A stretch of 64,000 bases of DNA, taken from an uncultured Alphaproteobacteria bacterium (lineage in GTDB: Bacteria; Pseudomonadota; Alphaproteobacteria; Rhizobiales; Hyphomicrobiaceae). The notes below the pieces were generated by a model. The model saw nothing but the letters and a program-made list of their open reading frames with translations. It made no database searches and had not been told where the DNA came from. The stretch is taken from contig CAWIYZ010000021.1 of assembly GCA_963840425.1 (NCBI GenBank), positions 21,075-85,074 on the forward strand. Direction: 5' to 3'. How positions within the stretch are numbered: the first letter of the stretch is position 1; each line of letters opens with the position of its first letter. The translations under genes and the position numbers were made by a program. Below, in pieces: positions 290 to 62,870 of the stretch.

Positions 290-2052
290 CCGCGCTCTTG
301 CCAAGAACGGCGCCCTTCGCTCCGGAGGAGATCGAGGCCCTCAACAGTGTGGTTGCGCGCTCGACGCCGCTGCAGCGAAGCTGGCTGGCTGGCTTTCTCG
401 CTGGGCTCGAGGCCGCCGGCGGACAGGCAGTTCAGCCAGCCGTTGCACCGCGCCCGCGCGTTCCGCTGACCCTTCTCTATGCCAGTGAGTCGGGCAATGC
501 CGAAGGCCTCGCGCTGAAGGCACGCAAGCATGCGCAGCGGCTGGGCTTTGACGCACGTGTCGTGGACATGGCAGACGCTGATCTCGCCGCATTGGCGAAA
601 GCGCAAAATCTCGTCGTGTTCGCCGCCACGTGGGGCGAAGGCGATCCGCCGCAGCGCGCAGCAGAGTTCTACACCAACCTTATGTCCGACAGCGTATCTC
701 GGCTCGAGGGCGTCCGCTTTGCCGTGCTGTCGCTGGGCGATACGGCGTACATCAATTTTTGTTCGGTCGGTAAGGCCATTGATGCTCGACTGGAGGCGTT
801 AGGCGGCGTGCGCGCGGCTGACCGCGTCGATCTGGATCTTGATTTTGCCAAGAAGGCCGCAGATTGGACCGAGCGCATTCTGACGCAGCTTGCACCTGAA
901 GAATCAGATGCGGCAGCACGCGTCGTGCGGGTTGATTTCCGTGGCGCTTCACAGGCGGCCGATGAGGCAGCCTTCACGGCCGAGACACCGCTCGAAGCCG
1001 AGATCACCTCCGCAATAAGTCTGAATGGCACGGGATCCAGCAGCGAGACGTGGCACATCGAGCTGGCCACCGACGCGGTCGGCTACGCCTATGAGCCGGG
1101 CGATGCGATCGGAGTGATCGCGGAAAACGATGCGGGGCTCGCGGCCGAGCTGGCGACGGTCGTTGGTCTCGGTGATGATGCAGAGCTGGTGCGTAAGCTC
1201 GTGACGAGCTACGACATTACGACGCTGACACGGCCCCTGGTCGAAGCCTATGGCCGGCTGACCGGCCGCACTGATGTGGCACAGCTCGCCGACGCGGAAG
1301 CGTTCCAACGCTTTGCTGCCGATCGGCAGATCATCGATCTGTTCTCCGGTTTCACCGAAAAGCTCACGGCTGACCAGCTGCAAGGTCTATTGCGCCCGTT
1401 GCCCTCGCGCCTGTACTCGGTTGCATCGAGTCTCAAGGCGCATCCGGGCGAGACGCATCTGCTTGTCTCGGCCGTTCGCTGGCGCTCGCATGGGCGCGAC
1501 CGCACGGGCGTCGCTTCCACTTGGCTCGCTGATTGGCGCAAGGTCGGAGAGAGCGCAAAGCTCTATGTGAAGCGGAACCGGCACTTCAAACTACCCAAGG
1601 ATTCCGCAATGCCGATCATCATGATCGGCGCAGGAACAGGCGTAGCTCCCTTTCGCGGCTTCGTCGAGGAGCGGGCCGAGGCCGGGATTACGTCGCCAAG
1701 CTGGCTGTTCTTCGGCGCGCGCAACTACACCAACGATTTCCTATACCAGCTCGAATGGCAGGATTACCTAAAGAGCCGGGCGCTGGGGCGCACCGACGTG
1801 GCCTTCTCGCGCGACCAACCCGAGAAGATCTACGTTCAACATAGACTTTGGGAGCGGCGCGACGAGATCCGTGGCTGGTTAGCCGACGGGGCACACGTCT
1901 ACGTGTGTGGCGATGAGAAGGGCCTTGGCCGGGATGTCGACGCCACGCTGGCACGCATTCTGGCGGAGCCGCTGAACGGCGATACGGCTGCCGGCAAGTC
2001 CCAGCTTTCCGATCTTGTTCGGGCCGGCCGCTACCAGCGCGACGTTTACTGA
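286..2052 (+). CDS. cysJ: Sulfite reductase (NADPH) flavoprotein alpha component
   Basis: ORF 184-2052; preferred ATG at 286 (MTALLPRTAPF) overlaps the upstream stop. It has a flavodoxin-like segment (LLYASESGNAEGLA), an FAD-binding RLYSVASS motif and NADPH-binding motifs (MIGAGTGVAPFRGF, VYVCGD) of the CysJ/CPR family. Confidence 0.85.
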   Translation: MTALLPRTAPFAPEEIEALNSVVARSTPLQRSWLAGFLAGLEAAGGQAVQPAVAPRPRVPLTLLYASESGNAEGLALKARKHAQRLGFDARVVDMADADLAALAKAQNLVVFAATWGEGDPPQRAAEFYTNLMSDSVSRLEGVRFAVLSLGDTAYINFCSVGKAIDARLEALGGVRAADRVDLDLDFAKKAADWTERILTQLAPEESDAAARVVRVDFRGASQAADEAAFTAETPLEAEITSAISLNGTGSSSETWHIELATDAVGYAYEPGDAIGVIAENDAGLAAELATVVGLGDDAELVRKLVTSYDITTLTRPLVEAYGRLTGRTDVAQLADAEAFQRFAADRQIIDLFSGFTEKLTADQLQGLLRPLPSRLYSVASSLKAHPGETHLLVSAVRWRSHGRDRTGVASTWLADWRKVGESAKLYVKRNRHFKLPKDSAMPIIMIGAGTGVAPFRGFVEERAEAGITSPSWLFFGARNYTNDFLYQLEWQDYLKSRALGRTDVAFSRDQPEKIYVQHRLWERRDEIRGWLADGAHVYVCGDEKGLGRDVDATLARILAEPLNGDTAAGKSQLSDLVRAGRYQRDVY

Positions 2053-2131
2053 TCAGTCGAATACCCAGGTCAAGGGCACCAAGAGCCGGAGCCGCCGCGA
2101 GGAAGAGCGCGGCAAGCCACGAGCACGAGCG

Positions 2132-3847
2132 ATGACTGACAAGCGTTCCAGAAACGAGATCATCAAGGAGCAGAGCCGACAGCTCCGCGGCACCATCGCG
2201 GAAGGTCTGGGCGAGGTCGTGACCGGCGCCATCTCGGAGGATGACGCCCAGCTCACTAAGTTTCACGGCACTTACTTACAGGACGACCGCGATGTGCGCG
2301 GCGAACGCTCGAAGAAGAAGCTGGAGAAGGCCTTCAGCTTCATGATCCGCGTGCGCTTGCCTGGTGGTCTCGTCACGCCGGCGCAATGGCTGGCGCTAGA
2401 TCGCATCGCCGACGACTACAGCAATGGCACTCTGCGCTTGACGACAAGACAGACGTTCCAGTTCCACGGCGTCATCAAGACCAACCTCAAGCACACCATG
2501 CAGGCGATCAATGCGGCCCTGCTGGATACCATCGCGGCATGTGGAGACGTGAACCGGAACGTGCTCTCGGCAGCCAACCCGTTCCTGTCCTCGGCGCATG
2601 CGGATGCCTATTCCTTGGCGGGCCGGATCAGCGCGCACCTGCTACCGCGGACAGGCGCGTATCACGAGATCTGGCTCGACGGGGAGAAAGTCGAGGATGC
2701 GAGCCGGCCAGCCGGCGCAAGCGAGGAGCCGATCTACGGCGCCCATTATCTTCCCCGCAAATTCAAGGCCGCCGTAGCAGTCCCGCCGGTGAACGATGTC
2801 GATGTGTTCGCGCAAGATCTTAGCTTCATCGCCATCGTCGAGAAGGGCAAGGTTGCAGGCTACAACGTGACAGCAGGCGGAGGCATGGGCATGACCCATG
2901 GCGAGCTCAACACGTTTCCGCGCCTTGCCGATGTTCTAGGGTTCTGCACGCCTGAGCAGGCCGTAGATGTCGCGGAGAAGATCGTTACGGTGCAACGCGA
3001 CTGGGGCAACCGCGAGGATCGCAAGCGCGCACGCCTCAAGTACACGATCGAGGACCGGGGGCTTGAGGCTTTCCGCAAGGAGGTCGAGAACCGGCTTGGC
3101 TACGAGCTCGGGGCCGCGCGCGATTTCCACTTTGAGCGTACGGGCGACGAGATTGGATGGCAGCGCGGCGCCGACAAGAAATGGCACCTGACACTGTTCA
3201 TCGAGAACGGACGGGTCAAGGATCGGCCGGGCCACGAGTTGCGCGCCGCGCTCCGGAAGATTGCGGAATTTCACTCTGGCAGCTTCGTCCTGACCAACAA
3301 CCAGAACGTTATCATCTCTCAAGTGTCACCCGCGCAGAAGCGCAGGATAGACGCCATCCTCACCGAGCACGGCATCGGCCTCGAGACCTTGTCAGGTTTG
3401 CGGCGCAACAGCATGGCGTGCGTTGCCTTGCCGACTTGCGGGCTGGCCCTGGCCGAGAGCGAGCGCTACCTGCCCGATCTCATCGGCAAGATCGAGGATG
3501 TGCTGGACAAAGCCGGCCTCAAGGAGGACGACATAGTTATCCGCATGACAGGTTGCCCCAACGGGTGCGCGCGTCCCTACGTCGCCGAGATCGGACTCGT
3601 TGGACGCTCACCCGGGCTTTACAACCTCTACCTCGGCGCGGCCTTCGACGGTTCGCGCTTGAACAAGCTGTATGCTCGCGACGCCGATGAGGAACGGATC
3701 GTCGCCGCGCTCGAGCCGATGTTGCATCGCTACGCCAAGGAGCGCAATCAGGCGGAGCGCTTCGGTGATTTTGTCATTCGCGCCGGATACGTGAAGCCGA
3801 CGACAGCCGGCAACACGTTCCACGCTGATCTGGCACCCGGCCTGTAG
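2132..3847 (+). CDS. cysI: Sulfite reductase (NADPH) hemoprotein beta component
   Basis: ORF 2015-3847; ATG at 2132 (MTDKRSRNEIIKEQS). It shows the duplicated nitrite/sulfite reductase fold and the siroheme-[4Fe-4S] cysteine cluster (MACVALPTCGLA ... TGCPNGCARP). Confidence 0.9.
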   Translation: MTDKRSRNEIIKEQSRQLRGTIAEGLGEVVTGAISEDDAQLTKFHGTYLQDDRDVRGERSKKKLEKAFSFMIRVRLPGGLVTPAQWLALDRIADDYSNGTLRLTTRQTFQFHGVIKTNLKHTMQAINAALLDTIAACGDVNRNVLSAANPFLSSAHADAYSLAGRISAHLLPRTGAYHEIWLDGEKVEDASRPAGASEEPIYGAHYLPRKFKAAVAVPPVNDVDVFAQDLSFIAIVEKGKVAGYNVTAGGGMGMTHGELNTFPRLADVLGFCTPEQAVDVAEKIVTVQRDWGNREDRKRARLKYTIEDRGLEAFRKEVENRLGYELGAARDFHFERTGDEIGWQRGADKKWHLTLFIENGRVKDRPGHELRAALRKIAEFHSGSFVLTNNQNVIISQVSPAQKRRIDAILTEHGIGLETLSGLRRNSMACVALPTCGLALAESERYLPDLIGKIEDVLDKAGLKEDDIVIRMTGCPNGCARPYVAEIGLVGRSPGLYNLYLGAAFDGSRLNKLYARDADEERIVAALEPMLHRYAKERNQAERFGDFVIRAGYVKPTTAGNTFHADLAPGL

Positions 3848-3854
3848 GCGGTGA

Positions 3855-5045
3855 CTACCACGCCAGCTCGAGGATCTCGCGCACGTCCTCGACCGTCTTG
3901 ATCGGGCGAGGATTGACCTTCACAGGCTTGTAGCCGAGCGAGCGTTTGGCCAACTCGTCCAAGTTCTCGCGCTTGATGCCAACGGCTCGGAGACTGCCAG
4001 GTTGATCCAAGCCTGCGACCAGCTTCGCAACAAGATCGCTCGCTGACTGATCTGGCGCGCCCATCGCCTCGGAAAGTGCGCGCTGACGATCGCCATTCAC
4101 CTTCGCATTCCAGCGCAGCACGGCCGGCAGCATGACGCAGGACGTATGCCCGTGCGCGACGCCGAACGTAGAGCCTAGCGCATAGCCGATACCATGGCTG
4201 GCGCCGCTGCCGGCACCCGCAGTGGACGCCGCGATGGCCTGCCACATGCCGAACTGCGCTTCCAGGCGCGGCTTCAAGTCCTTGGGATTGGCCTTGATCG
4301 CGGGCAGCGCACGCGACAGCAGCTTCAAGCCCTGCAGGGACAAAGGTTCTGTCGCCGGATTGGCAAGCGTGGAGCAGTAGCTTTCCACCGCATGGTCCAC
4401 TGAACGAATACCGGTGCAGAACAACAACCAATCCGGCGTGTCGAGCGTGGCCTCGGGATCGAGGATCACGGTGCGTGGTGCGAATAGGCGGTGTCCGAAA
4501 GACTGCTTGGAGCTGGTACGGGTATCCGTCACGCCCGCAGCCGGGGTGAACTCTGAGGCAGATAGCGTGGTGGAGACTGCCAGCATGCGAATTGGATCTG
4601 CGGGTATGACTACGGGCGCACTCTTCGAGCCGTCGAGGCCGGCGCGATAGGGCTCCATGGCGTCGATTGTCTCCAGGCCCAGCCATAGACAGAGCTGCAT
4701 CGTCTTGGTCGCATCGATGACCGAGCCGCCACCCACCGCAACGAGTAGATCGGCCTTGGCCGCGCGCGCGTCGTTGGCGCCCGCAATGATGTCCTCGCGC
4801 GGGCTGTGCGCGCTGATGGCGGTGTAGGTCCCCACGTGTCGGTCGCCGAGCGCGCGCTCGATACGCTGCAGGGGACCGTTCTTGAGCTTGGCCAGCGAGC
4901 GGGTGGACGTCACGAACACGCGCGAAGCGCCGTAGCGGGCGGCTTCAGAAACCACCGCCTCGGCGGCCGGCCTGCCGAAAATGATGCGTTCCACGGCGTT
5001 GATCGTAAAATGGCCGGTCGTCAGTCCGGCATGCGCGTCGCTCAT
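3855..5045 (-). CDS. Iron-containing alcohol dehydrogenase family protein (maleylacetate reductase-like)
   Basis: Only the 3' 1.19 kb of the 1146-aa ORF is credible. ATG at 5045 (MSDAHAGLTTGHF), 396 aa. It carries the GGGSVIDATK motif and His-rich metal-site motifs (SVDHAVESY, HGIGYALG...HGH) of Fe-ADH. Confidence 0.85.
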   Translation of the reverse strand: MSDAHAGLTTGHFTINAVERIIFGRPAAEAVVSEAARYGASRVFVTSTRSLAKLKNGPLQRIERALGDRHVGTYTAISAHSPREDIIAGANDARAAKADLLVAVGGGSVIDATKTMQLCLWLGLETIDAMEPYRAGLDGSKSAPVVIPADPIRMLAVSTTLSASEFTPAAGVTDTRTSSKQSFGHRLFAPRTVILDPEATLDTPDWLLFCTGIRSVDHAVESYCSTLANPATEPLSLQGLKLLSRALPAIKANPKDLKPRLEAQFGMWQAIAASTAGAGSGASHGIGYALGSTFGVAHGHTSCVMLPAVLRWNAKVNGDRQRALSEAMGAPDQSASDLVAKLVAGLDQPGSLRAVGIKRENLDELAKRSLGYKPVKVNPRPIKTVEDVREILELAW

Positions 5046-36549: not shown

Positions 36550-38553
36550 ATGCAGGTGACAGGGCCCACGCCGAGATCGGATGACGCTTCGATCGGCCGC
36601 ATCGTGTCCGTGACGGGCTCGAGGGCCGTCCTCCTGCTCGACAATGCTCAGAACGGTGCTGCGCGCAGCTCCACGCAGCGACCCGAGATGGGCACGCTGC
36701 TCGCCATCGACACGGCCGGCACGGTTGCGCTCGCGATCGTGTCGGCACTCAGTGTTCCCGTGCCGGCTCAGCGCGAGGGCGAAGGCGAGATTTGGATCGC
36801 TGAGCTAGGCCTCGTCGGTGAGTTGTGGCGAGGCAAGGACGGCCAGCCATCCTCCTTCAATCGCGGCGTGACGTCGTATCCGGCGCTCGGTCATCGCGTT
36901 CGGGTCGCTTCGAATGCCGAGCTTGGCCTGGCCTTCTGCGATGACGACAAGCAGTCGGTCCGCGTCGGCAGCATTCGCCAGGATCCATCTATCCCTGCGA
37001 TGATCCGGGTCGACGAGTTGCTCGGCAAGCACTTTGCCATCCTCGGCACCACCGGTACCGGAAAGTCGTGCACGACTGCGCTGATTCTGCGCGCCATTCT
37101 CGAGAAGAATCCGGCCGCGCATCTCGTATTGCTCGACCCCCACAACGAGTATGCGACGGCCTTCACCGAATGGGCGGAGGTGCTGTCCCCGCGCAACCTG
37201 CAGTTGCCCTTCTGGCTGCTGACGTTCGAGGAGCTTTCCGAGGTCGTCATCGGTGATCCCGCGGACCGCAAGAGCGAGATTGAGACGCTTCAGGAGCTGA
37301 TCCCTATTGCCAAGAGCCGGTACAGCGCGGGCCGTGGCAAGGAGGCGCAGGCGTTGCGCGCGCGCATGCACGACGCCGGCCGCTACACCGTCGATACACC
37401 GGTGCCCTACCGCCTGTCGGACCTCATCTCGCTCATCGACGATCGCATGGGCAAGCTAGAGAACAAGCGTGACCTGGCGCCATACCGGAATCTCAAGACG
37501 CGCATCGAGACGCTCTCGGTGGACCCGCGCTACGCGTTCATGTTCGGCTCGCTGACTGTCAACGACGACATGGCCCAAGTGCTGGGCCGCCTCTTCCGCG
37601 TGCCTGTCAATGGCAAGCCGATCACGATCCTCGAGTTGACCGGTCTTCCGACCGAGATCGTCAATGTCGTGGTGGCCGTGCTCTGCCGCATGACATTCGA
37701 CTTCGCCCTGTGGAGCGAGGGCAAGATCCCGGTCACGCTGGTGTGCGAGGAGGCGCACCGCTATGTGCCGGCCAATCCGAACATGGGCTTCGAGCCGTGC
37801 AAGCGCGCCATCGCCAGGATTGCCAAGGAGGGCCGCAAGTACGGCGCATCGCTGTGCATCGTGACGCAGCGGCCGGCGGAAATCGATCCGACCATCCTGT
37901 CGCAGTGCAATACCGTGTTCGCATTGCGTATGTCGAACGATCGCGATCAGCAGATCGTCACCTCGGCGATCTCGGACACCGGCTCCGGGTTGTTGGAGTT
38001 CCTGTCCGCACTTGGCCAGCGCGAGGCCATAGCTTTCGGCGACGGTGTATCGCTGCCCGTGCGCATCCGTTTCGACGAGCTGCCGCATCATGCGATGCCG
38101 CGCAGCTCCACCGCGCGGTTCTCGGAGCGCTGGCAGAAGTCGCTGGGCGATGACGGGTTCCTCGAGCAGATCGTGGAGAAGTGGCGCCTGTCGTCGAGCG
38201 GCGCTGGTGGGGAAGCGGGGCAGCAGACGGCGATGTTTGCCGATGCCCTGAGTTTTCCTGATGTTCAACAGGGTGATGGTGGCGATGGTGCTTCGCCGCC
38301 AGCCTACGAGACCGAGCCCCTACGCTACCGGCAGATGTCCGAAACCGCGGCTGCCGGCGGTACCCCTGCTGAGCAGCCGCTATCGGTTGGGAGCATGCCG
38401 CGTCATGGGGCGGGCAACGCACGGCGGGAGCCGTCAGGTCCACGCCGCGACACGGCCGCACCGGTCGCCGGATCAGCTCAGACGTCGCCTCAGCCCGGCA
38501 GTGCCCTGCGCTCGCTGCGCGAGCGACTGACACAGCGGCCTCCTTCGCGGTAA
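36550..38553 (+). CDS. HerA-like (DUF87/FtsK-HerA superfamily) ATPase with a long low-complexity C-terminal tail
   Basis: ORF 36529-38553; ATG at 36550 is preceded by AAAGGGA. It has an N-terminal HAS-barrel-like segment (IGRIVSVTGSRAVLLLD), Walker A (ILGTTGTGKSCT), Walker B (VTLVCEEAHRY) and VTQRPAEID. The last ~120 aa are Pro/Ala/Gly/Ser/Arg-rich. Confidence 0.75.
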   Translation: MQVTGPTPRSDDASIGRIVSVTGSRAVLLLDNAQNGAARSSTQRPEMGTLLAIDTAGTVALAIVSALSVPVPAQREGEGEIWIAELGLVGELWRGKDGQPSSFNRGVTSYPALGHRVRVASNAELGLAFCDDDKQSVRVGSIRQDPSIPAMIRVDELLGKHFAILGTTGTGKSCTTALILRAILEKNPAAHLVLLDPHNEYATAFTEWAEVLSPRNLQLPFWLLTFEELSEVVIGDPADRKSEIETLQELIPIAKSRYSAGRGKEAQALRARMHDAGRYTVDTPVPYRLSDLISLIDDRMGKLENKRDLAPYRNLKTRIETLSVDPRYAFMFGSLTVNDDMAQVLGRLFRVPVNGKPITILELTGLPTEIVNVVVAVLCRMTFDFALWSEGKIPVTLVCEEAHRYVPANPNMGFEPCKRAIARIAKEGRKYGASLCIVTQRPAEIDPTILSQCNTVFALRMSNDRDQQIVTSAISDTGSGLLEFLSALGQREAIAFGDGVSLPVRIRFDELPHHAMPRSSTARFSERWQKSLGDDGFLEQIVEKWRLSSSGAGGEAGQQTAMFADALSFPDVQQGDGGDGASPPAYETEPLRYRQMSETAAAGGTPAEQPLSVGSMPRHGAGNARREPSGPRRDTAAPVAGSAQTSPQPGSALRSLRERLTQRPPSR

Positions 38554-38699
38554 GGAACACGCCGTGCGGCACGCTGTCTCGCTGGCTAAGACCTTAAGCA
38601 GCACAAGACCGTTTTCTTGAGCGCTATCGCGGATGACGATATTGGTTCTGTCATCTGGGTGAAGCCCGTTTCTGGTCCGATCCCGCTCAGAGTGGCAGT

Positions 38700-38771
38700 C
38701 TGGTGTCCCGGTCCCAAAGCTCGTCGGACCTCGCGTCAAGCATTGAACGCATTTCTCGATCATCGCACTAG
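38700..38771. repeat. Degenerate copy of the A-type CTAG-bounded hairpin repeat
   Basis: CTGGTGTCCCGG...GCTCGTCGGACCTCGCG...TTGAACGCATTTCTCGATCATCGCACTAG aligns with the A/B units at 41195-41357 but carries many substitutions. Confidence 0.5.
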
Positions 38772-38816
38772 CTGCATTTGCAACTGCCAGCTGCGCTCGA
38801 CCCCAAAGGCGGGACC

Positions 38817-40262
38817 ATGAGCTCCATTTATCCAGTCATTCTCTCGGGCGGCTCGGGCACGAGGCTCTGGCCGCTTTCGCGATCCATGTATCCCAAGCAG
38901 TTCATTCGTTTCTTCAACGGGCAGGGACTAACCTTTCTCGGCGCAACCCTGCGCAGGCTCAGTTCGGAGGCGGGATTCGGTAACCCGGTCCTCTTGTGCA
39001 ACAACGATCATCGTTTCCTCATCAGCGATGAGCTAGAGCGCGCGGGCGTTACGCCCGAAGCAATCATTCTGGAGCCGGTGGCGCGCAACACAGCTGCAGC
39101 CATTGCGGTTGCCGCGCTCTCCGTCGCTGAGAACGATTCCGAGGGAGTGCTCGTCGTTATGCCCTCGGACCACGTGATCCGCGACGAGGCCGGTTTCGTT
39201 GCGGCCGTGCGTCGAGCTGCCAAGGTGGCGGCCACGGGCAAGCTCGTGCTGTTCGGCATCAAGCCGGACACGGCGCATACCGGCTATGGCTACATTCGCC
39301 GCGGCGCTCCACTCGGTGGATCGGAGGCTGGTGCCTTCAAGGTGGATGCGTTTTTTGAGAAGCCTGATGCCGACACGGCGCGCCGGTATATCGCGGATGG
39401 CAGCTACTATTGGAACAGTGGCATCTTCGTGCTCCATGCCCGTACGTTTTTGAGCGAGCTGGAGCGCTTCGAGCCGCGTATACTCGAAGCCGTCCGCGCG
39501 GCCCTCGCGGGCGCGCAGCATGACCTCGGATTTCTGAGGCTCGACCGTGCTGGTTTTGCCCAGGCCCCCAACATATCGGTCGACTACGCGGTGATGGAGA
39601 AGACATCCGAGGCTGTGATGCTGCCGATCGATGTCGGCTGGAGCGACGTCGGTTCGTGGGCTTCGCTATGGGAAATTGCGGCGCGGGACGAGAAGGGCAA
39701 CTACTCGCGTGGCGAGGCGGTGCTCGAGGACAGCAGCGACCTATACGTGCACAGCGAGCGCGCGCTCGTGGCGACGATCGGGGTCAAGGATCTCATCATC
39801 GTCGATACTCCCGACGCACTGCTGGTCGCCGACAAAGCGCGGGCGCAGGACGTGTCCAAGGTTGTGGCGAAGCTCAAGCAGTCGAACCGCAAGGAGCAGG
39901 AGCAGCACCTGCGAAACTACCGGCCATGGGGCTTTTTTGAAACCCTGTCCATTGGCCCACGCTTCCAGGTCAAGCTGCTGCACGTGAAGCCCGGCGGCAA
40001 GCTCTCCATGCAAATGCACCACCATCGCTCGGAGCATTGGGTCGTCGTCCAGGGCACGGCCAAGGTCTTGGTCGGCGATGTCGAGCAGCTCGTACGGGAG
40101 AATGAGAGCGTTTACATCGTCGCGACCCAATGGCACCGCCTCGAGAACCCCGGCAAGGTGCCGCTCGAGATCATCGAGGTGCAGATCGGCACGTACCTCG
40201 GCGAGGATGACATCATCCGCAGCGATGATGTCTATCATCGCGCTCCGGACGAGACCAAATAG
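38817..40262 (+). CDS. manC: Mannose-1-phosphate guanylyltransferase / mannose-6-phosphate isomerase (bifunctional type II PMI-GMP)
   Basis: ORF 38778-40262; ATG at 38817 (MSSIYPVILSGGSGTRLWPLSR). C-terminal cupin (HHRSEHWVVVQGTAKV...WHRLENPG). Confidence 0.9.
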   Translation: MSSIYPVILSGGSGTRLWPLSRSMYPKQFIRFFNGQGLTFLGATLRRLSSEAGFGNPVLLCNNDHRFLISDELERAGVTPEAIILEPVARNTAAAIAVAALSVAENDSEGVLVVMPSDHVIRDEAGFVAAVRRAAKVAATGKLVLFGIKPDTAHTGYGYIRRGAPLGGSEAGAFKVDAFFEKPDADTARRYIADGSYYWNSGIFVLHARTFLSELERFEPRILEAVRAALAGAQHDLGFLRLDRAGFAQAPNISVDYAVMEKTSEAVMLPIDVGWSDVGSWASLWEIAARDEKGNYSRGEAVLEDSSDLYVHSERALVATIGVKDLIIVDTPDALLVADKARAQDVSKVVAKLKQSNRKEQEQHLRNYRPWGFFETLSIGPRFQVKLLHVKPGGKLSMQMHHHRSEHWVVVQGTAKVLVGDVEQLVRENESVYIVATQWHRLENPGKVPLEIIEVQIGTYLGEDDIIRSDDVYHRAPDETK

Positions 40263-40291
40263 TCAGCTGCAACGAATGCACTGATGCGTCG

Positions 40292-41173
40292 TCAATGCCG
40301 CGTTTCGCCCGGTGCAGTCGAGGCCGTGATGACGGACCCGTCCGCTGCCTGTGCGGGAGGTCCCGCGCTCGCTTCCCATGCGCGCTTTTCATGGGCAAAG
40401 CGCCGATAGCTCAGAGGAATCACAGCCAGATAGAGCAGCGTGACCACGGTCAACGTGCCATAGGGATAGGTCACCAGCAGCCCGACGAGTGCGGCAACGC
40501 CGATCAAGATCGGCAGCACCAGCTCGCGCTCGATGCGTTCGCCCAGCAGCTTGCCCGAATAGGTCGGGATCGTCGAAACCAGCAAGAACGCCATGCACAG
40601 GGTGTAAAGGGCGATGAGCAGCGGGAACGCCCGGACGTCGAAAAAGCCCAGGCCGTTCACATAGAGCGGAAGCAGGACCGTGATGGCTCCGGCCGGCGCC
40701 GGCATGCCGGTAAAGTAATTGGACTGCCACTTGGGTTTGTCGACGTCGAGCATGGCGTTGAAGCGGGCGAGTCTCAGGCCCATGGCGCATGCGAAAACCA
40801 GGGCGGCTATCCAGCCGAAGCCTTTGAGGTCGCCGAGACCCCACGTGAATACGAGCACCGCTGGTGCCACGCCGAAATTGACGAAATCGGCAAGACTGTC
40901 GAGCTCGGCGCCGAAGCGGGACTGTGCCTTGAGCGCGCGCGCGAGACGCCCGTCGACGCCATCGAGCAGCGCCGCAATGACGATCAGCGCCAGAGCCAGC
41001 TCGAGCCGGCTCTCGATGGCCATGCGGATGGCGGTTACGCCCGCGCATAGGCTGAGCAGAGTGAAGAAGTTAGGCAGCAACAGCCGGACAGGAATCTTGC
41101 GATGCCGGAACAACAGGCGCCGCCGGCGCCGGCGTTCGCCCTCCACTAAACTAGGCTCCAATGGCTCGATCAT
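40292..41173 (-). CDS. pssA: CDP-diacylglycerol--serine O-phosphatidyltransferase
   Basis: CDP-alcohol phosphatidyltransferase motif DGVDGRLARALKAQSRFGAELDSLAD; multiple TM helices; downstream of psd. Confidence 0.9.
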   Translation of the reverse strand: MIEPLEPSLVEGERRRRRRLLFRHRKIPVRLLLPNFFTLLSLCAGVTAIRMAIESRLELALALIVIAALLDGVDGRLARALKAQSRFGAELDSLADFVNFGVAPAVLVFTWGLGDLKGFGWIAALVFACAMGLRLARFNAMLDVDKPKWQSNYFTGMPAPAGAITVLLPLYVNGLGFFDVRAFPLLIALYTLCMAFLLVSTIPTYSGKLLGERIERELVLPILIGVAALVGLLVTYPYGTLTVVTLLYLAVIPLSYRRFAHEKRAWEASAGPPAQAADGSVITASTAPGETRH

Positions 41174-41194
41174 TTGCCAGCCTCCACTTGGCCC

Positions 41195-41357
41195 CTAGTG
41201 TCCCGATAGCGAAGTTCGTCGGACTTCGCGGCGAGCACTTAACGAACTTCGCGATCGAAAGGACACTAGCAAGTACCTAATGCTAGTGTGATTCAGATCG
41301 AGAAATTTGCTCACGCACCTGCTGCGAATACCGGCGAATTTCTCGATCATCACACTA
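41195..41357. repeat. REPIN-like double-hairpin repeat dimer (A unit 41195-41269, 13-nt spacer, B unit 41283-41357)
   Basis: Each 75-76-bp unit is a near-perfect palindrome bounded by CTAG(TGT). The dimer fills the psd-pssA intercistronic gap and is the reverse complement of the dimer at 42127-42291. Confidence 0.9.
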
Positions 41358-41371
41358 CCGGTCATGTTCCT

Positions 41372-42118
41372 TCAGGTGACCCGCGCCTCGCGTTCCGGCT
41401 CATCCGATTTGAGATCGGCCAGCACGGTTTCTCCACCCACCGCGCGCTGTCCGACGGCGGCCAGCGTGCCGCGCCCTGGCGGAAGATACAGGTCGACACG
41501 GCTGCCGAAGCGTATGAGGCCGATTCGCTCGCCGACGCCGACAGCCGCGCCCTCGTCCTTGAAACCGACAATGCGGCGGGCAATGAGGCCGGCGATCTGG
41601 ACGACGGCAATCTCGTCGCCACCGGGTGTGGCGATCACCAGCGCGCGCCGCTCGTTGTCCTCGCTCGCCTTGTCGAGAGCGGCATTGAGGAACAAACCGG
41701 GGATATAAATCGCCCGCTCGATGCGGCCTGCCACTGGCGAGCGGTTGATGTGTACGTCGAAGACGGAAAGGAAGATGGAGATGCGCACGCGCTCGCTGTC
41801 TCCCAACCCAAGCTCGGCCGGAGGACGAACGCGCTCGATGCGCTGGATTTTGCCGTCCGCTGGCGCGATCACCAGGCCCTCGCGCAGCGGAGTTACACGG
41901 TCGGGATCGCGAAAGAAGTAGGCGATATAGATCGAGGCAACGACCAGGATCCACGCCAGCGGTGGCCATATGAAGAAGAACAGGAGCATCAGTCCAAGGC
42001 TGATCGCCAGGAACTTGTGCCCGTCGCGGTGGACGGGGGCGAGCGTCGAAGTGATGGTGTCAAAGAGGCCGTGGCGGTCGTTCAAAGGCGGCTCCGTAGG
42101 CGGCAGTGCCCGATCCAT
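41372..42118 (-). CDS. psd: Phosphatidylserine decarboxylase proenzyme (short alphaproteobacterial type)
   Basis: The FGSRVD self-cleavage (G-S) motif and the HINRSPV segment. A start at ATG 42118 has no obvious RBS. An alternative TTG at 42085 lies 6 nt downstream of GGAG. Confidence 0.85.
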   Translation of the reverse strand: MDRALPPTEPPLNDRHGLFDTITSTLAPVHRDGHKFLAISLGLMLLFFFIWPPLAWILVVASIYIAYFFRDPDRVTPLREGLVIAPADGKIQRIERVRPPAELGLGDSERVRISIFLSVFDVHINRSPVAGRIERAIYIPGLFLNAALDKASEDNERRALVIATPGGDEIAVVQIAGLIARRIVGFKDEGAAVGVGERIGLIRFGSRVDLYLPPGRGTLAAVGQRAVGGETVLADLKSDEPEREARVT

Positions 42119-42126
42119 ACAGGGCG

Positions 42127-42291
42127 CTAGTGTGATGATCGAGAAATTCGCCGATATTCGCTGCCAGACTGTAAGCGAATTTCTCGATCTGAATCACACT
42201 AGAATCCCAAAGCTTGCTAGTGTCCTTTCGATCGCGAAGTTCGTTCAACGGTTGCTGCGAATTCCGGCGAACTTCGCGATCGGGACACTAG
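42127..42291. repeat. REPIN-like double-hairpin repeat dimer (B unit 42127-42202, 14-nt spacer, A unit 42217-42291)
   Basis: Same family as 41195-41357 but in inverted orientation. It starts 9 nt upstream of the psd ATG. Confidence 0.9.
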
Positions 42292-42367
42292 CTTCGCGGC
42301 TGATTGGTAGCGGGACGCTGTTCAGCCGGCAACCCCTCGGCGGGGCCTCCTCGTTGACAAGAACGAC

Positions 42368-43855
42368 TTATTCAATCGGCACGGCGACGAAGCGCATCTC
42401 GCCCTTGGCATCCTCGACGCGGAGCAGGACAGCCTTGCGGCCGGCCTTGCGCACCTTCTCGATGCCCTTGGTGACGTCCTCCACCGTGGCCACTGCTTCC
42501 TGGGCAGCTTCGACGATGGCGTCACCGACCTTGATGCCCTTCCGCGCAGCCTGACTGGCAGCGTCAATCTCCGTGACAACAAGGCCTTTCACTTTCTTGT
42601 CGAAGCCGTACTTCTGGCGCAGCTCATCGGTCAGCGGCGCAAGCTTCATGCCGATCAGCGCCTGGCCTGGCGCAGGCGTAGTCTTGTCGTCGCTCTTCTT
42701 GGATGCATCGTCCGGGTCGGCATCCTCTTGCAACCGGCCGATGGCGAGCTTGAACGACTTCTTCTCGCCCTTGCGCAGCACCTCGACGTCGACCTGCTTG
42801 CCGATGGGCGTCTGCGACACCATGCGCGGCAACCCGCGCATGGTGGAAACCTCCTTGCCGTCGAACTTGGTAATCACGTCTCCCGCTTGTATGCCGGCCT
42901 TGGCGGCTGGGCTGTCGGCTGTCACCCCGGCGACCAGGGCGCCGGTGTTCTCTTTCACTCCCACCGACTCGGCGATGTCCTCGGTCACCGACTGAATCCT
43001 GACGCCGAGCCAGCCGCGGCGCGTCTCGCCGAACTGCTTGAGCTGGTCGATCACGGCCACGGCGGTATCGGCAGGCACGGCAAACCCGATGCCGATGGAG
43101 CCTCCCGTCGGCGAGATGATCGCCGTATTTACGCCGATGACCTCGCCGTCCATGTTGAACAGCGGACCGCCGGAATTGCCTTTGTTGATGGCCGCATCCG
43201 TTTGCAGGTAGTCGTCATACGGGCCCGAGTTGATGTCACGCTGCTTGGCGGAAATGATGCCGACCGTGACCGAGCCGCCGAGGCCGAACGGATTGCCGAT
43301 GGCCATTACCCAGTCGCCGACCTTCAAGTTCGCGGAATTGCCGAACGTCGCCGCCGGCAGCGGCTTCTTGGGCGTCACCTTGAGCAGCGCCAGATCAGTC
43401 TTGGTGTCCTTGCCGATCACCTTGTCGACCTTCAGCTTGCTGCCGTCGTTGAAGTTGATGATGATCTCGTCCGCACCTTCGATGACGTGGTTGTTGGTGA
43501 CGACGAGGCCTTCCTTGCCGTCGATGACGAAGCCCGAGCCCAAGGATGACACCTTGCGGTCGGTCTGCGGGCGGCCCTTGCGATTGAAGAAGTCCTCGAA
43601 GAATTCCTCGAAGGGCGAGCCTTTCGGAACGTTCGGCAGCGGCACGCCCTGTGCGCCTTTGACCGTCTGGCTGGTGGAGATGTTGACCACCGCATCGATC
43701 AGCTTTTCCGCAATGGGCGCGACCGACTGCGGGCCGACGCGACCCTGTGCGTAGAGCGACGGCACGGCCGCAACCGTGAGGAGCACAGCGGCGGTGAGCT
43801 TCACTCTATGAGCCGTGGCCCGCTTGCGAACAATCGTCGGCGTCATTGACGTCAT
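42368..43855 (-). CDS. degP: DegP/HtrA (Do family) periplasmic serine endoprotease with two PDZ domains
   Basis: ORF 42368-43966; ATG at 43855 gives a signal peptide (…LLTVAAVPSLYA). Catalytic motifs TNNHVIEG and GNSGGPLFN, followed by two PDZ-like segments. Confidence 0.85.
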   Translation of the reverse strand: MTSMTPTIVRKRATAHRVKLTAAVLLTVAAVPSLYAQGRVGPQSVAPIAEKLIDAVVNISTSQTVKGAQGVPLPNVPKGSPFEEFFEDFFNRKGRPQTDRKVSSLGSGFVIDGKEGLVVTNNHVIEGADEIIINFNDGSKLKVDKVIGKDTKTDLALLKVTPKKPLPAATFGNSANLKVGDWVMAIGNPFGLGGSVTVGIISAKQRDINSGPYDDYLQTDAAINKGNSGGPLFNMDGEVIGVNTAIISPTGGSIGIGFAVPADTAVAVIDQLKQFGETRRGWLGVRIQSVTEDIAESVGVKENTGALVAGVTADSPAAKAGIQAGDVITKFDGKEVSTMRGLPRMVSQTPIGKQVDVEVLRKGEKKSFKLAIGRLQEDADPDDASKKSDDKTTPAPGQALIGMKLAPLTDELRQKYGFDKKVKGLVVTEIDAASQAARKGIKVGDAIVEAAQEAVATVEDVTKGIEKVRKAGRKAVLLRVEDAKGEMRFVAVPIE

Positions 43856-44110
43856 GATTTCCCCAGGATCGAGGGCTAAAACCTTTACGGAGGCTCGCCT
43901 ATCCATCAGGCCGAAACTGGCACCTGTCAACGGCGGGACTGAGGCGGGCAGGCAATCCGCCCTCACGCTACGGTGAAGATGGGTGGTTCCGTCACGCCCC
44001 TATTGCACGCGACGCGGCGAAAGCCCGGCGATGCCACGAAAATATGCAGAGGGCTGCGTAAGCACGCGCCACGCGAGCCCGTCATACGCAAGTTGCCTTG
44101 CCCGGCATGA

Positions 44111-45160
<1,050 letters not shown>

Positions 45161-45378
45161 GGGTTTTTCGCCCGCGGTGGGCTGGCTCCAATGTTTCGCA
45201 TCGGCTACCGCATGATGTGGGGCCGGTGCCGTATGGATTGCGGTAGTGATGCGCTATGTTGCGGCATGTTATGCTGCACTGCACACTATGCTAGGTGCAG
45301 TCGTTGATCATCTGGCATACTGTATGCCAGAAAAGAGCGTCTGAACCGCGCCGACGCAACGACTGAAGGGGTGCCTCC

Positions 45379-46578
<1,200 letters not shown>

Positions 46579-47601: not shown

Positions 47602-47701
47602 GAATCACACTAGAATATTGATTTGGCTACTGTCCTTCAGATCGCGAAATTCGTTCCGGGCCCGCCGCACAAAAAGACGAATTTCGCGATCAGGACACTA
47701 G
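47602..47701. repeat. Partial REPIN-like dimer (12-bp terminal remnant of a B unit 47602-47613, 13-nt spacer, A-type unit 47627-47701)
   Basis: GAATCACACTAG, then CTACTGTCCTTCAGATCGCGAAATTCGT...ACGAATTTCGCGATCAGGACACTAG. The stem sequence is intermediate between the A and B types. Confidence 0.8.
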
Positions 47702-62401: not shown

Positions 62402-62710
62402 ATGACGCCCAGCCAAAGCTTCATCACTCACTGGTATTTCCATGTGCCCAATCTGATCATGGTCGCTCTGATCTACGCCTTGATCGGTCGCTGTATTCTG
62501 TTGCTCATCTTCGGCTTGGACAGCGACCGCAGGATCGTCCGCGTTTTCAACCGCGTCACAGATCCGGTCGTGAAGGCAGTCGGTGCCATCACGCCGAGGA
62601 TCGTCCCGACTGGGCTGCTCATCGTTTTTGCAGTCGGCTGGTTGTTTGTGGCTCGCGTGGCGCTTTTCTTCGGGCTGGCAGTGATGGGCGTGCGACCGGT
62701 GTTGAGCTAG
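62402..62710 (+). CDS. YggT-like small membrane protein
   Basis: ORF 62318-62710. The ATG at 62402 lies downstream of the terminator at 62324-62354. It has two to three TM helices and a central VFNRVTDPVVKAVGAITPRIVP segment resembling the YggT motif. The TAG stop is part of the terminal CTAG of the adjacent repeat. Confidence 0.5.
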   Translation: MTPSQSFITHWYFHVPNLIMVALIYALIGRCILLLIFGLDSDRRIVRVFNRVTDPVVKAVGAITPRIVPTGLLIVFAVGWLFVARVALFFGLAVMGVRPVLS

Positions 62711-62870
62711 TGTGATGATCGAGAAATTCGCCCGAATTCGCTGCTTGGCTCTTAGCGAATTTCTCGATCTGAATCACACTAGCATCATGTACTTACTAGT
62801 GTCCTTTCGATCGCGAAGTTCGTTCAATGGTTGCTGCGAGTTCCGACGAACTTCGCGATCGGGGCACTAG
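62707..62870. repeat. REPIN-like double-hairpin repeat dimer (B unit 62707-62782, 13-nt spacer, A unit 62796-62870)
   Basis: Same order and orientation as 42127-42291, with nearly identical arms and divergent loops. Confidence 0.9.

Follow-up and report, generated by a model that had tools for sequence, protein, structure and literature searches.

Within a 64,000-nucleotide stretch of DNA from an uncultured alphaproteobacterium placed in the Hyphomicrobiaceae (assembly GCA_963840425.1, contig CAWIYZ010000021.1, positions 21,075 to 85,074), here referred to as the window, the phosphatidylserine decarboxylase gene psd is flanked by two oppositely oriented copies of a repeat of about 165 bp. Each copy is a dimer of two hairpin units, A and B; one dimer lies in the gap between psd and the downstream gene pssA and the other one in the gap between psd and an upstream gene for a DegP/HtrA-like protease, here degP. 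We consider it highly probable that the two dimers are independent copies of a non-autonomous repeat, resembling a MITE (miniature inverted-repeat transposable element), that is dispersed through the Hyphomicrobiaceae. On this view, the arrangement at psd is a by-product of transposition, and not a dedicated switch.

Composition and distribution of the repeat family

The original prediction had described four hairpin units around psd, A units outside and B units inside, and this anatomy was recovered far beyond chance at the coordinates given in Table 1. A repeat search returned two inverted arm pairs, 41280-41360 with 42125-42205 (81 nt, 86%) and 41195-41273 with 42213-42291 (79 nt, 89%), and the frame CTAGTGT-N55-75-ACACTAG was found four times in the window compared with 0.00 expected from 100 shuffles. 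The boundaries of all four units had been placed correctly, with the qualification that the outer CTAG of the B unit in the psd-pssA dimer is degenerate (…ACACTAC). The same prediction had treated the pair as a peculiarity of psd, a view that did not survive: since the fourth match to the frame lies at 62707, the units are not private to this gene, and the psd pair turned out to be two of 74 dispersed dimers, with four further neighbouring pairs of the genome also lying in inverted orientation.

These numbers were obtained by iterating an nhmmer search over the complete 5.83-Mb assembly that holds the window (G000; its contigs are cited as C10, C14, C17, C21 and C35). The census counted 183 units, 94 of A type and 89 of B type. 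Pairs of units make up the 74 dimers, which measure about 165 bp and in 71 cases have the canonical order B-(13-16 nt)-A; a further 36 are solo units, several of them hybrids of a B arm and an A arm, i.e. internal deletions. All four arms have in common the core TAGTGT-N3-6-GATCGNGAANTTCG; the outer arms of the dimer likewise share a TAGTGT…GATCGNGAANTTCG core, and the two arms of a unit are near-perfect inverted repeats of 27-30 bp. At psd, each of the four units folds into a hairpin whose stem of about 27-30 bp contains a 3-nt bulge and whose loop measures about 20 nt; the energies lie between -33 and -40 kcal/mol as RNA and between -22 and -28 kcal/mol as DNA. Across 53 full dimers, 97.7% of the stem cells were paired and compensatory double changes were present in 17 of the 44 stem pairs; the loops, unlike the stems, were poorly conserved.

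Full-length dimers were detected in 13 of the 24 Hyphomicrobiaceae genomes searched and in four of the five genomes of the genus, whereas among 16 genomes from other families of the same order only one gave a match. A dimer of the same architecture was found in a metagenome-assembled genome (MAG) labelled Xanthobacteraceae (L057, 3749-3914), bounded by CTAG and carrying GAAGTTCG cores, so that the family reaches beyond the Hyphomicrobiaceae; it lies about 1.6 kb downstream of the psd gene of that MAG. A plasmid database contained no match to the family, and a literature search found the arm sequences in no paper and no description of a Hyphomicrobium MITE.

Placement of the dimers of G000 relative to genes was determined with a crude open reading frame (ORF) caller based on GC3. 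None of 70 dimers lay inside a coding-like ORF, and the gaps that they occupy were co-directional in 52 cases, divergent in 13 and convergent in five. A gene 3' end was within 300 nt of 55 of 72 dimers, and in 17 dimers the terminal TAG of the element is the stop codon of the gene. The B-to-A direction followed transcription in 39 of the co-directional gaps and opposed it in 13 (p = 0.0004). Neighbouring dimers within 3 kb of each other formed eight pairs compared with 2.8 expected, five of them inverted (the psd pair and four others).

Two loci deserve a separate description. At C17:71951-72278, two dimers in direct tandem have one CTAG in common, as would be expected if the terminal TA of one element had served as the insertion site of the other. 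The dimer at C10:261663-261829 sits exactly at the stop/start overlap of two genes: the empty allele (L102) reads CTGATGG, and in the filled allele the terminal CTAG provides the TAG stop codon of the upstream gene and CTAGTGG an in-frame GTG start for the downstream one.

Insertion sites and the search for a mobilising enzyme

Mobility of the family was assessed by comparing G000 with its closest relative, G005, which has a psd of 98% identity and differs by about 8% overall (7.7%) in the aligned flanks. Among 25 dimer sites of G000 that could be placed in G005, 13 carried a full dimer and eight were empty; of the others, one retained a 12-nt remnant of both termini, two held a single hybrid unit and one a truncated copy. 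In the opposite direction, about seven of 17 dimers of G005 corresponded to empty sites in G000. In all, at least 10 sites proved to be filled in G000 only. The dimers at C14:21398 and C35:168589 are 99.4% identical (one base in 166) and the former occupies what is an exact empty CTAG in G005, which marks it as a recent transposition.

Empty alleles with a single TA read CTAG at L101, L103 and L116, GTAG at L106 and L117, and CTAT at L120. The filled allele at L120 reads C-TA-GTGT…ACAC-TA-c, which fits a duplication of the 2 bp TA and not one of 4 bp, and a model of a 4-bp CTAG duplication was dropped in favour of TA duplication on the basis of L106 and L120. For the most part, the observations show that the element, made up of two bulged hairpin modules of about 75 bp, B and then A, inserts in intergenic DNA at TA, with a preference for CTAG and in many cases where a gene stops with TAG, apparently duplicating the TA. 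According to the model that we propose, it would be moved in trans by some transposase.

The two copies at psd differ in their history. In G005 the psd-pssA dimer is present and the degP-psd dimer is absent; the empty degP-psd site of G005 reads gcgaagcTCgcgcc and the filled site of G000 reads gcgaagc-TA-[165 bp]-TA-gcgcc. Neither dimer was found in four further genomes at the level of the genus, where the psd-pssA gap measures about 40 nt. Several metagenomes and one NCBI MAG contributed conspecific psd contigs, at 98.6-100% identity; seven of them (L158, L159, L160, L161, L162, L166 and L172) have the arrangement of the window and two (L163 and L164) lack the degP-psd dimer. The psd-pssA copy would thus have landed before the split from the closest relative, and the degP-psd copy is polymorphic among strains. 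Identity between the two copies is only 84%, and each has a closer relative elsewhere in the genome (90% and 88.5%); they are therefore independent insertions that have not been homogenised. Gene conversion between them was rejected on the same figures. Their opposite orientation would then be due to chance, leaving psd between inverted repeats.

Several observations weigh against transposition of a MITE-like element as the whole explanation. Only six of about 16 polymorphic sites had an empty allele with a clean single TA; at the others, 1-13 junction bases were changed. TA is missing from about half of the empty alleles, which read CTCG, CTGA (twice), CAGC or TGTG or have altered bases at the junction. 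The degP-psd copy may have been gained in G000 or lost in G005, either being possible. The orientation bias relative to transcription may be a sign that selection or some function is involved besides neutral insertion. Finally, a cognate autonomous insertion sequence (IS) with the same termini was not found in G000, in which matches to DDE_3 (PF13358, IS630-type), to Y1_Tnp (PF01797), the domain of the REP-associated tyrosine transposase (RAYT), and to PF13586 were all absent. None of its 13 DDE_Tnp_1 genes (IS4/IS5-type) had matching ends, and 12 IS630-family loci from relatives also lacked the termini of the element. G015, whose assembly consists of three contigs and has a completeness score of 100%, carries many copies, yet contained neither DDE_3 nor Y1_Tnp.

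The altered junctions can be explained in part by a fast turnover of CTAG. This tetranucleotide occurs at 4094 sites in G000, 0.53 of the Markov expectation, about 7% of them within the repeats, and only about 50% of the CTAG sites outside the repeats are conserved between G000 and G005, despite the overall divergence of 7.7%. Excision footprints were disfavoured as an explanation for the odd empty sites, since most lengths had stayed the same and the turnover of ordinary CTAG sites is equally fast.

As for the enzyme, an IS630-type parent was considered and rejected, as G000 has no DDE_3 gene and the 12 loci of relatives have no matching ends. PF13358 was present in G004, G005, G007, G010, G012 and G013 and absent from G000, G002, G003 and G015. 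When isolated arms were searched for genome-wide, only short deletion remnants were recovered. In size, copy number, inverted repeats and polymorphism the family mostly agrees with the definition of a MITE; the cognate IS is the part that is missing, because no IS with matching ends was found.

A different source of mobility would be a RAYT, which spreads doublets of REP sequences known as REPINs. The build of the units recalls REPINs, as each consists of two inverted arms of about 27 nt around a short loop, and their bulges are strand-asymmetric. We nevertheless regard this identity as highly improbable. The defining test of the model fails, since Y1_Tnp was absent from the genome and from the genus: no match was obtained in G000, in any of five genus members, in G007 or in G015, under conditions in which control genomes were matched, and G012 was the only carrier genome searched that had a Y1 gene. 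Moreover, duplication of TA is not a feature of RAYT or of IS200-type elements.

Hairpins, start codon and possible inversion at psd

The genes psd, pssA and degP are all on the minus strand. The psd-pssA dimer takes up 164 nt of the 198-nt gap, and the degP-psd dimer begins 8-9 nt from the annotated psd start, ATG 42118. The longest exact inverted match between the dimers is 33 nt, followed by matches of 26 and 25 nt.

Table 1. Window coordinates of the genes, repeat units and sequence features described in the text (L167 is a metagenome contig)
Feature	Position	Strand	Remarks
A unit, psd-pssA dimer (outer, pssA side)	41195..41269	-	75-bp bulged hairpin, bounded by CTAG
13-nt spacer, psd-pssA dimer	41270..41282	-	Between the A and B units
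B unit, psd-pssA dimer (inner)	41283..41358	-	13 nt past the psd stop codon; outer CTAG degenerate (CTAC)
B unit, degP-psd dimer (inner)	42127..42202	+	
14-nt spacer, degP-psd dimer	42203..42216	+	
A unit, degP-psd dimer (outer)	42217..42291	+	Whole dimer 42127-42291
33-nt exact inverted repeat, copy 1	41241..41273	.	Partner 42213-42245; crossover of the L167 hybrid dimer
33-nt exact inverted repeat, copy 2	42213..42245	.	Partner 41241-41273
psd, phosphatidylserine decarboxylase	41372..42085	-	PF02666; conserved TTG start, 237 aa
psd as annotated from ATG 42118	41372-42118, 747 nt	-	11 extra, non-conserved codons
GGAG Shine-Dalgarno of psd	42092..42095	-	TTG 42085 follows after 6 nt; nearest hairpin base (42127) 31 nt away
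pssA, CDP-alcohol phosphatidyltransferase	40292..41173	-	PF01066; GGAGG 41182-41186 between ATG and dimer
DegP/HtrA-like serine protease	42368..43966	-	Upstream of psd, same strand
Third canonical B-A dimer in the window	62707..62870	+	Same family; also in G005
Solo A-type unit of the family	47627..47701	+	C21:68701-68775
Degenerate hybrid unit of the family	38700..38771	-	C21:59774-59845

Concerning translation, it had been proposed that psd may start at TTG 42085, which follows a GGAG, and that the hairpins may occlude its ribosome-binding region. Comparison of loci bore out the alternative start: codon 12 of the annotated gene is TTG or GTG, preceded by GGAG at a distance of 5-7 nt, in 12 of 13 loci, and ATG 42118 is conserved only in G000 and G005. 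Occlusion found no support, because the psd Shine-Dalgarno sequence and start codon, and likewise the GGAGG of pssA, are outside the hairpins. By position, both insertions leave Shine-Dalgarno sequences and start codons intact.

At the RNA level, the elements are probably co-transcribed, which would place two stable hairpins in a degP-psd-pssA transcript, and effects of these hairpins on mRNA processing or stability, as in REP, ERIC and Correia elements, are plausible. A stronger proposal is that the dimers have been domesticated as RNA or DNA modules and retained because their hairpins set differential degP-psd-pssA expression through processing, 3'-end protection or attenuation. This is a possible reading, though on balance an unlikely one. 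It agrees with the very stable hairpin of each unit, with stems kept by compensatory changes while the loops drift, and with dimers that are strictly intergenic, mostly just past gene 3' ends and oriented 3:1 relative to transcription; for ERIC and Correia elements, both co-transcription and an influence on mRNA stability have been reported (PMC3184786). At psd itself, however, the degP-psd copy is dispensable, given its absence from G005, L163 and L164, and it lies in the minority orientation; four other members of the genus do without both copies. The compensatory changes could also be explained by quasi-palindrome correction or by co-evolution of terminal repeats. Covariance models of Rfam 15 gave no match at E <= 1 across 38000-46000, and a promoter and terminator scan revealed nothing notable.

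We finally consider the proposal that homologous recombination between the dimers inverts psd. The 33-nt perfect core could allow rare inversion of a RecA type, and one contig does show psd inverted; collinearity of degP-psd-pssA was found in all 12 related genomes inspected and in nine conspecific contigs showing psd with a neighbouring gene (eight from metagenomes and one from the NCBI MAG). Of ten contigs of the species that reveal the orientation of psd, one (L167) thus carries it inverted, and this one is possibly an artefact. In L167 (ENA ERZ27257244, k141_6875720), which measures 3623 nt and shares 98.6-99.2% identity with the window, psd and pssA lie on opposite strands: positions 1-1054 of the contig correspond to window 41238-42291 in forward orientation and positions 888-3623 to window 41360-38626 in reverse. 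Its junction dimer is an exact hybrid, in which the B unit, spacer and A left arm of the degP-psd copy are followed by the A loop and right arm of the psd-pssA copy and then by the pssA flank; the crossover falls in the longest perfect inverted match. Private single-nucleotide polymorphisms on both sides of the junction indicate that L167 comes from a distinct strain.

Inversion mediated by inverted repeats does occur within the family on a smaller scale. The 24-nt loop of an A unit (window 41218-41241) is flipped relative to its ortholog in G005 (L091, 1320-1394), with 22 of 24 positions matching in the flipped and three of 24 in the direct orientation and the arms unchanged. About 12 of 64 A-unit loops in G000 appear flipped relative to the majority.

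Even so, it seems rather doubtful to us that the dimer pair mediates homologous inversion of psd, against the direction of degP-psd-pssA transcription, in natural populations. The inverted form is known from a single contig of a short-read MEGAHIT assembly. This contig starts 3 nt beyond the core with CTT, which is of the un-recombined loop-1 type, whereas TTG would be expected after reciprocal inversion. Reverse-complemented, its initial 36 nt match its own positions 976-1011 exactly. Such an end structure agrees with a misjoin of the fold-back kind, with a chimera formed by template switching at a strong hairpin, or with several forms being mixed; it could also stem from a strain whose two A units became homogenised first and inverted afterwards. 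In addition, the overall identity of the psd copies is low (84%), and another inverted pair, on C10, is present in both G000 and G005 with the 308-bp segment between its dimers not inverted. A programmed switch of the Hin/Fim type found no backing in the neighbourhood of psd, where the genes encode the DegP-like protease, PssA and a ManC-like protein, none being a site-specific recombinase, and the repeats are generic copies of the family. A pattern scan of metagenomes for the four junction types returned only one contig, of the reference type, and is uninformative about inversion; look-ups with the DegP protein and with the psd haplotype of L167 yielded no further contigs. That inversion of psd by the repeat pair is both real and recurrent in natural populations of the species we hold to be improbable.

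Two features of the metagenome contigs were recorded besides. Several short-read contigs of the species break inside the dimers, namely L161 (42236), L162 (42156/41211), L168 (41225), L169 (41292) and L170 (41203), which suggests that coverage drops out or the assembly graph becomes tangled at the hairpins and bears on the trust to be placed in L167. L167 also has six substitutions within 19 nt of psd (window 41609-41627), some of them common to G005 or L164, and this cluster may be a small recombination patch.

Comparison with known elements and implications

The closest analogues of the family are the Correia and ERIC elements, from which it differs in its tandem two-module build, in ending with CTAG and in having no partner that could be detected. 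Correia elements (CREE/NEMIS of Neisseria) duplicate TA at the target and are processed by RNase III. Like the present family they are non-coding, measure about 100-160 bp, form hairpins from terminal inverted repeats, have many intergenic copies near genes and are polymorphic among strains. No sequence relationship was detected between the two, however, and the hosts belong to different classes; a Correia element forms one hairpin from two terminal repeats, whereas here two hairpins with four related arms stand in tandem, and neither an IHF site nor a promoter was identified. Correia elements have been described as co-transcribed MITEs (PMC3184786).

The ERIC/IRU element (127 bp) and the RU elements of Enterobacteriaceae resemble the family in being imperfect palindromes with TA-flanked termini. 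ERIC has been characterised as an imperfect palindrome in transcribed intergenic regions, with terminal inverted repeats, target duplications and 5'-TA-3' flanking both termini, and orientation-dependent effects on mRNA decay have been reported (PMC3184786). Sequence and host are nevertheless unrelated, ERIC is a single palindrome, and B-A modules and CTAG ends are found only in the family described here.

MITEs of the IS630/Tc1-mariner group share with it the apparent TA duplication and the preference for CTAG, the classical target of IS630; the difference lies in the absence of DDE_3 from G000 and several other carriers and in the 12 loci devoid of matching ends. Inverted hairpin doublets, composite mosaics and regular spacing are reminiscent of REPIN/RAYT systems and BIMEs, from which the family is set apart by the lack of a RAYT, by arms of 27-30 bp as opposed to whole REPs of about 20-35 nt, and by its TA/CTAG target signature. 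In Rhizobiales, RIME1 comprises elements some 150 bp long that lie between genes and consist of two large palindromes; compared by description only, it contrasts with a family that centres on the Hyphomicrobiaceae.

A single element family thus accounts for the length of both spacers, psd-pssA and degP-psd, for a psd start annotated too far upstream and for the breaks in metagenome contigs. If L167 is genuine, it would be a natural case of dispersed repeats rearranging a core gene of phospholipid synthesis, and inversion in populations, if true, would uncouple psd from the degP-psd-pssA unit and give rise to a polymorphism, driven by the repeats and not programmed, in which phosphatidylethanolamine synthesis is on or off or varies in dosage. 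For the Hyphomicrobiaceae, the analysis brings to light a family of two-hairpin MITE-like elements for which no published description was found and which is still polymorphic between close strains.

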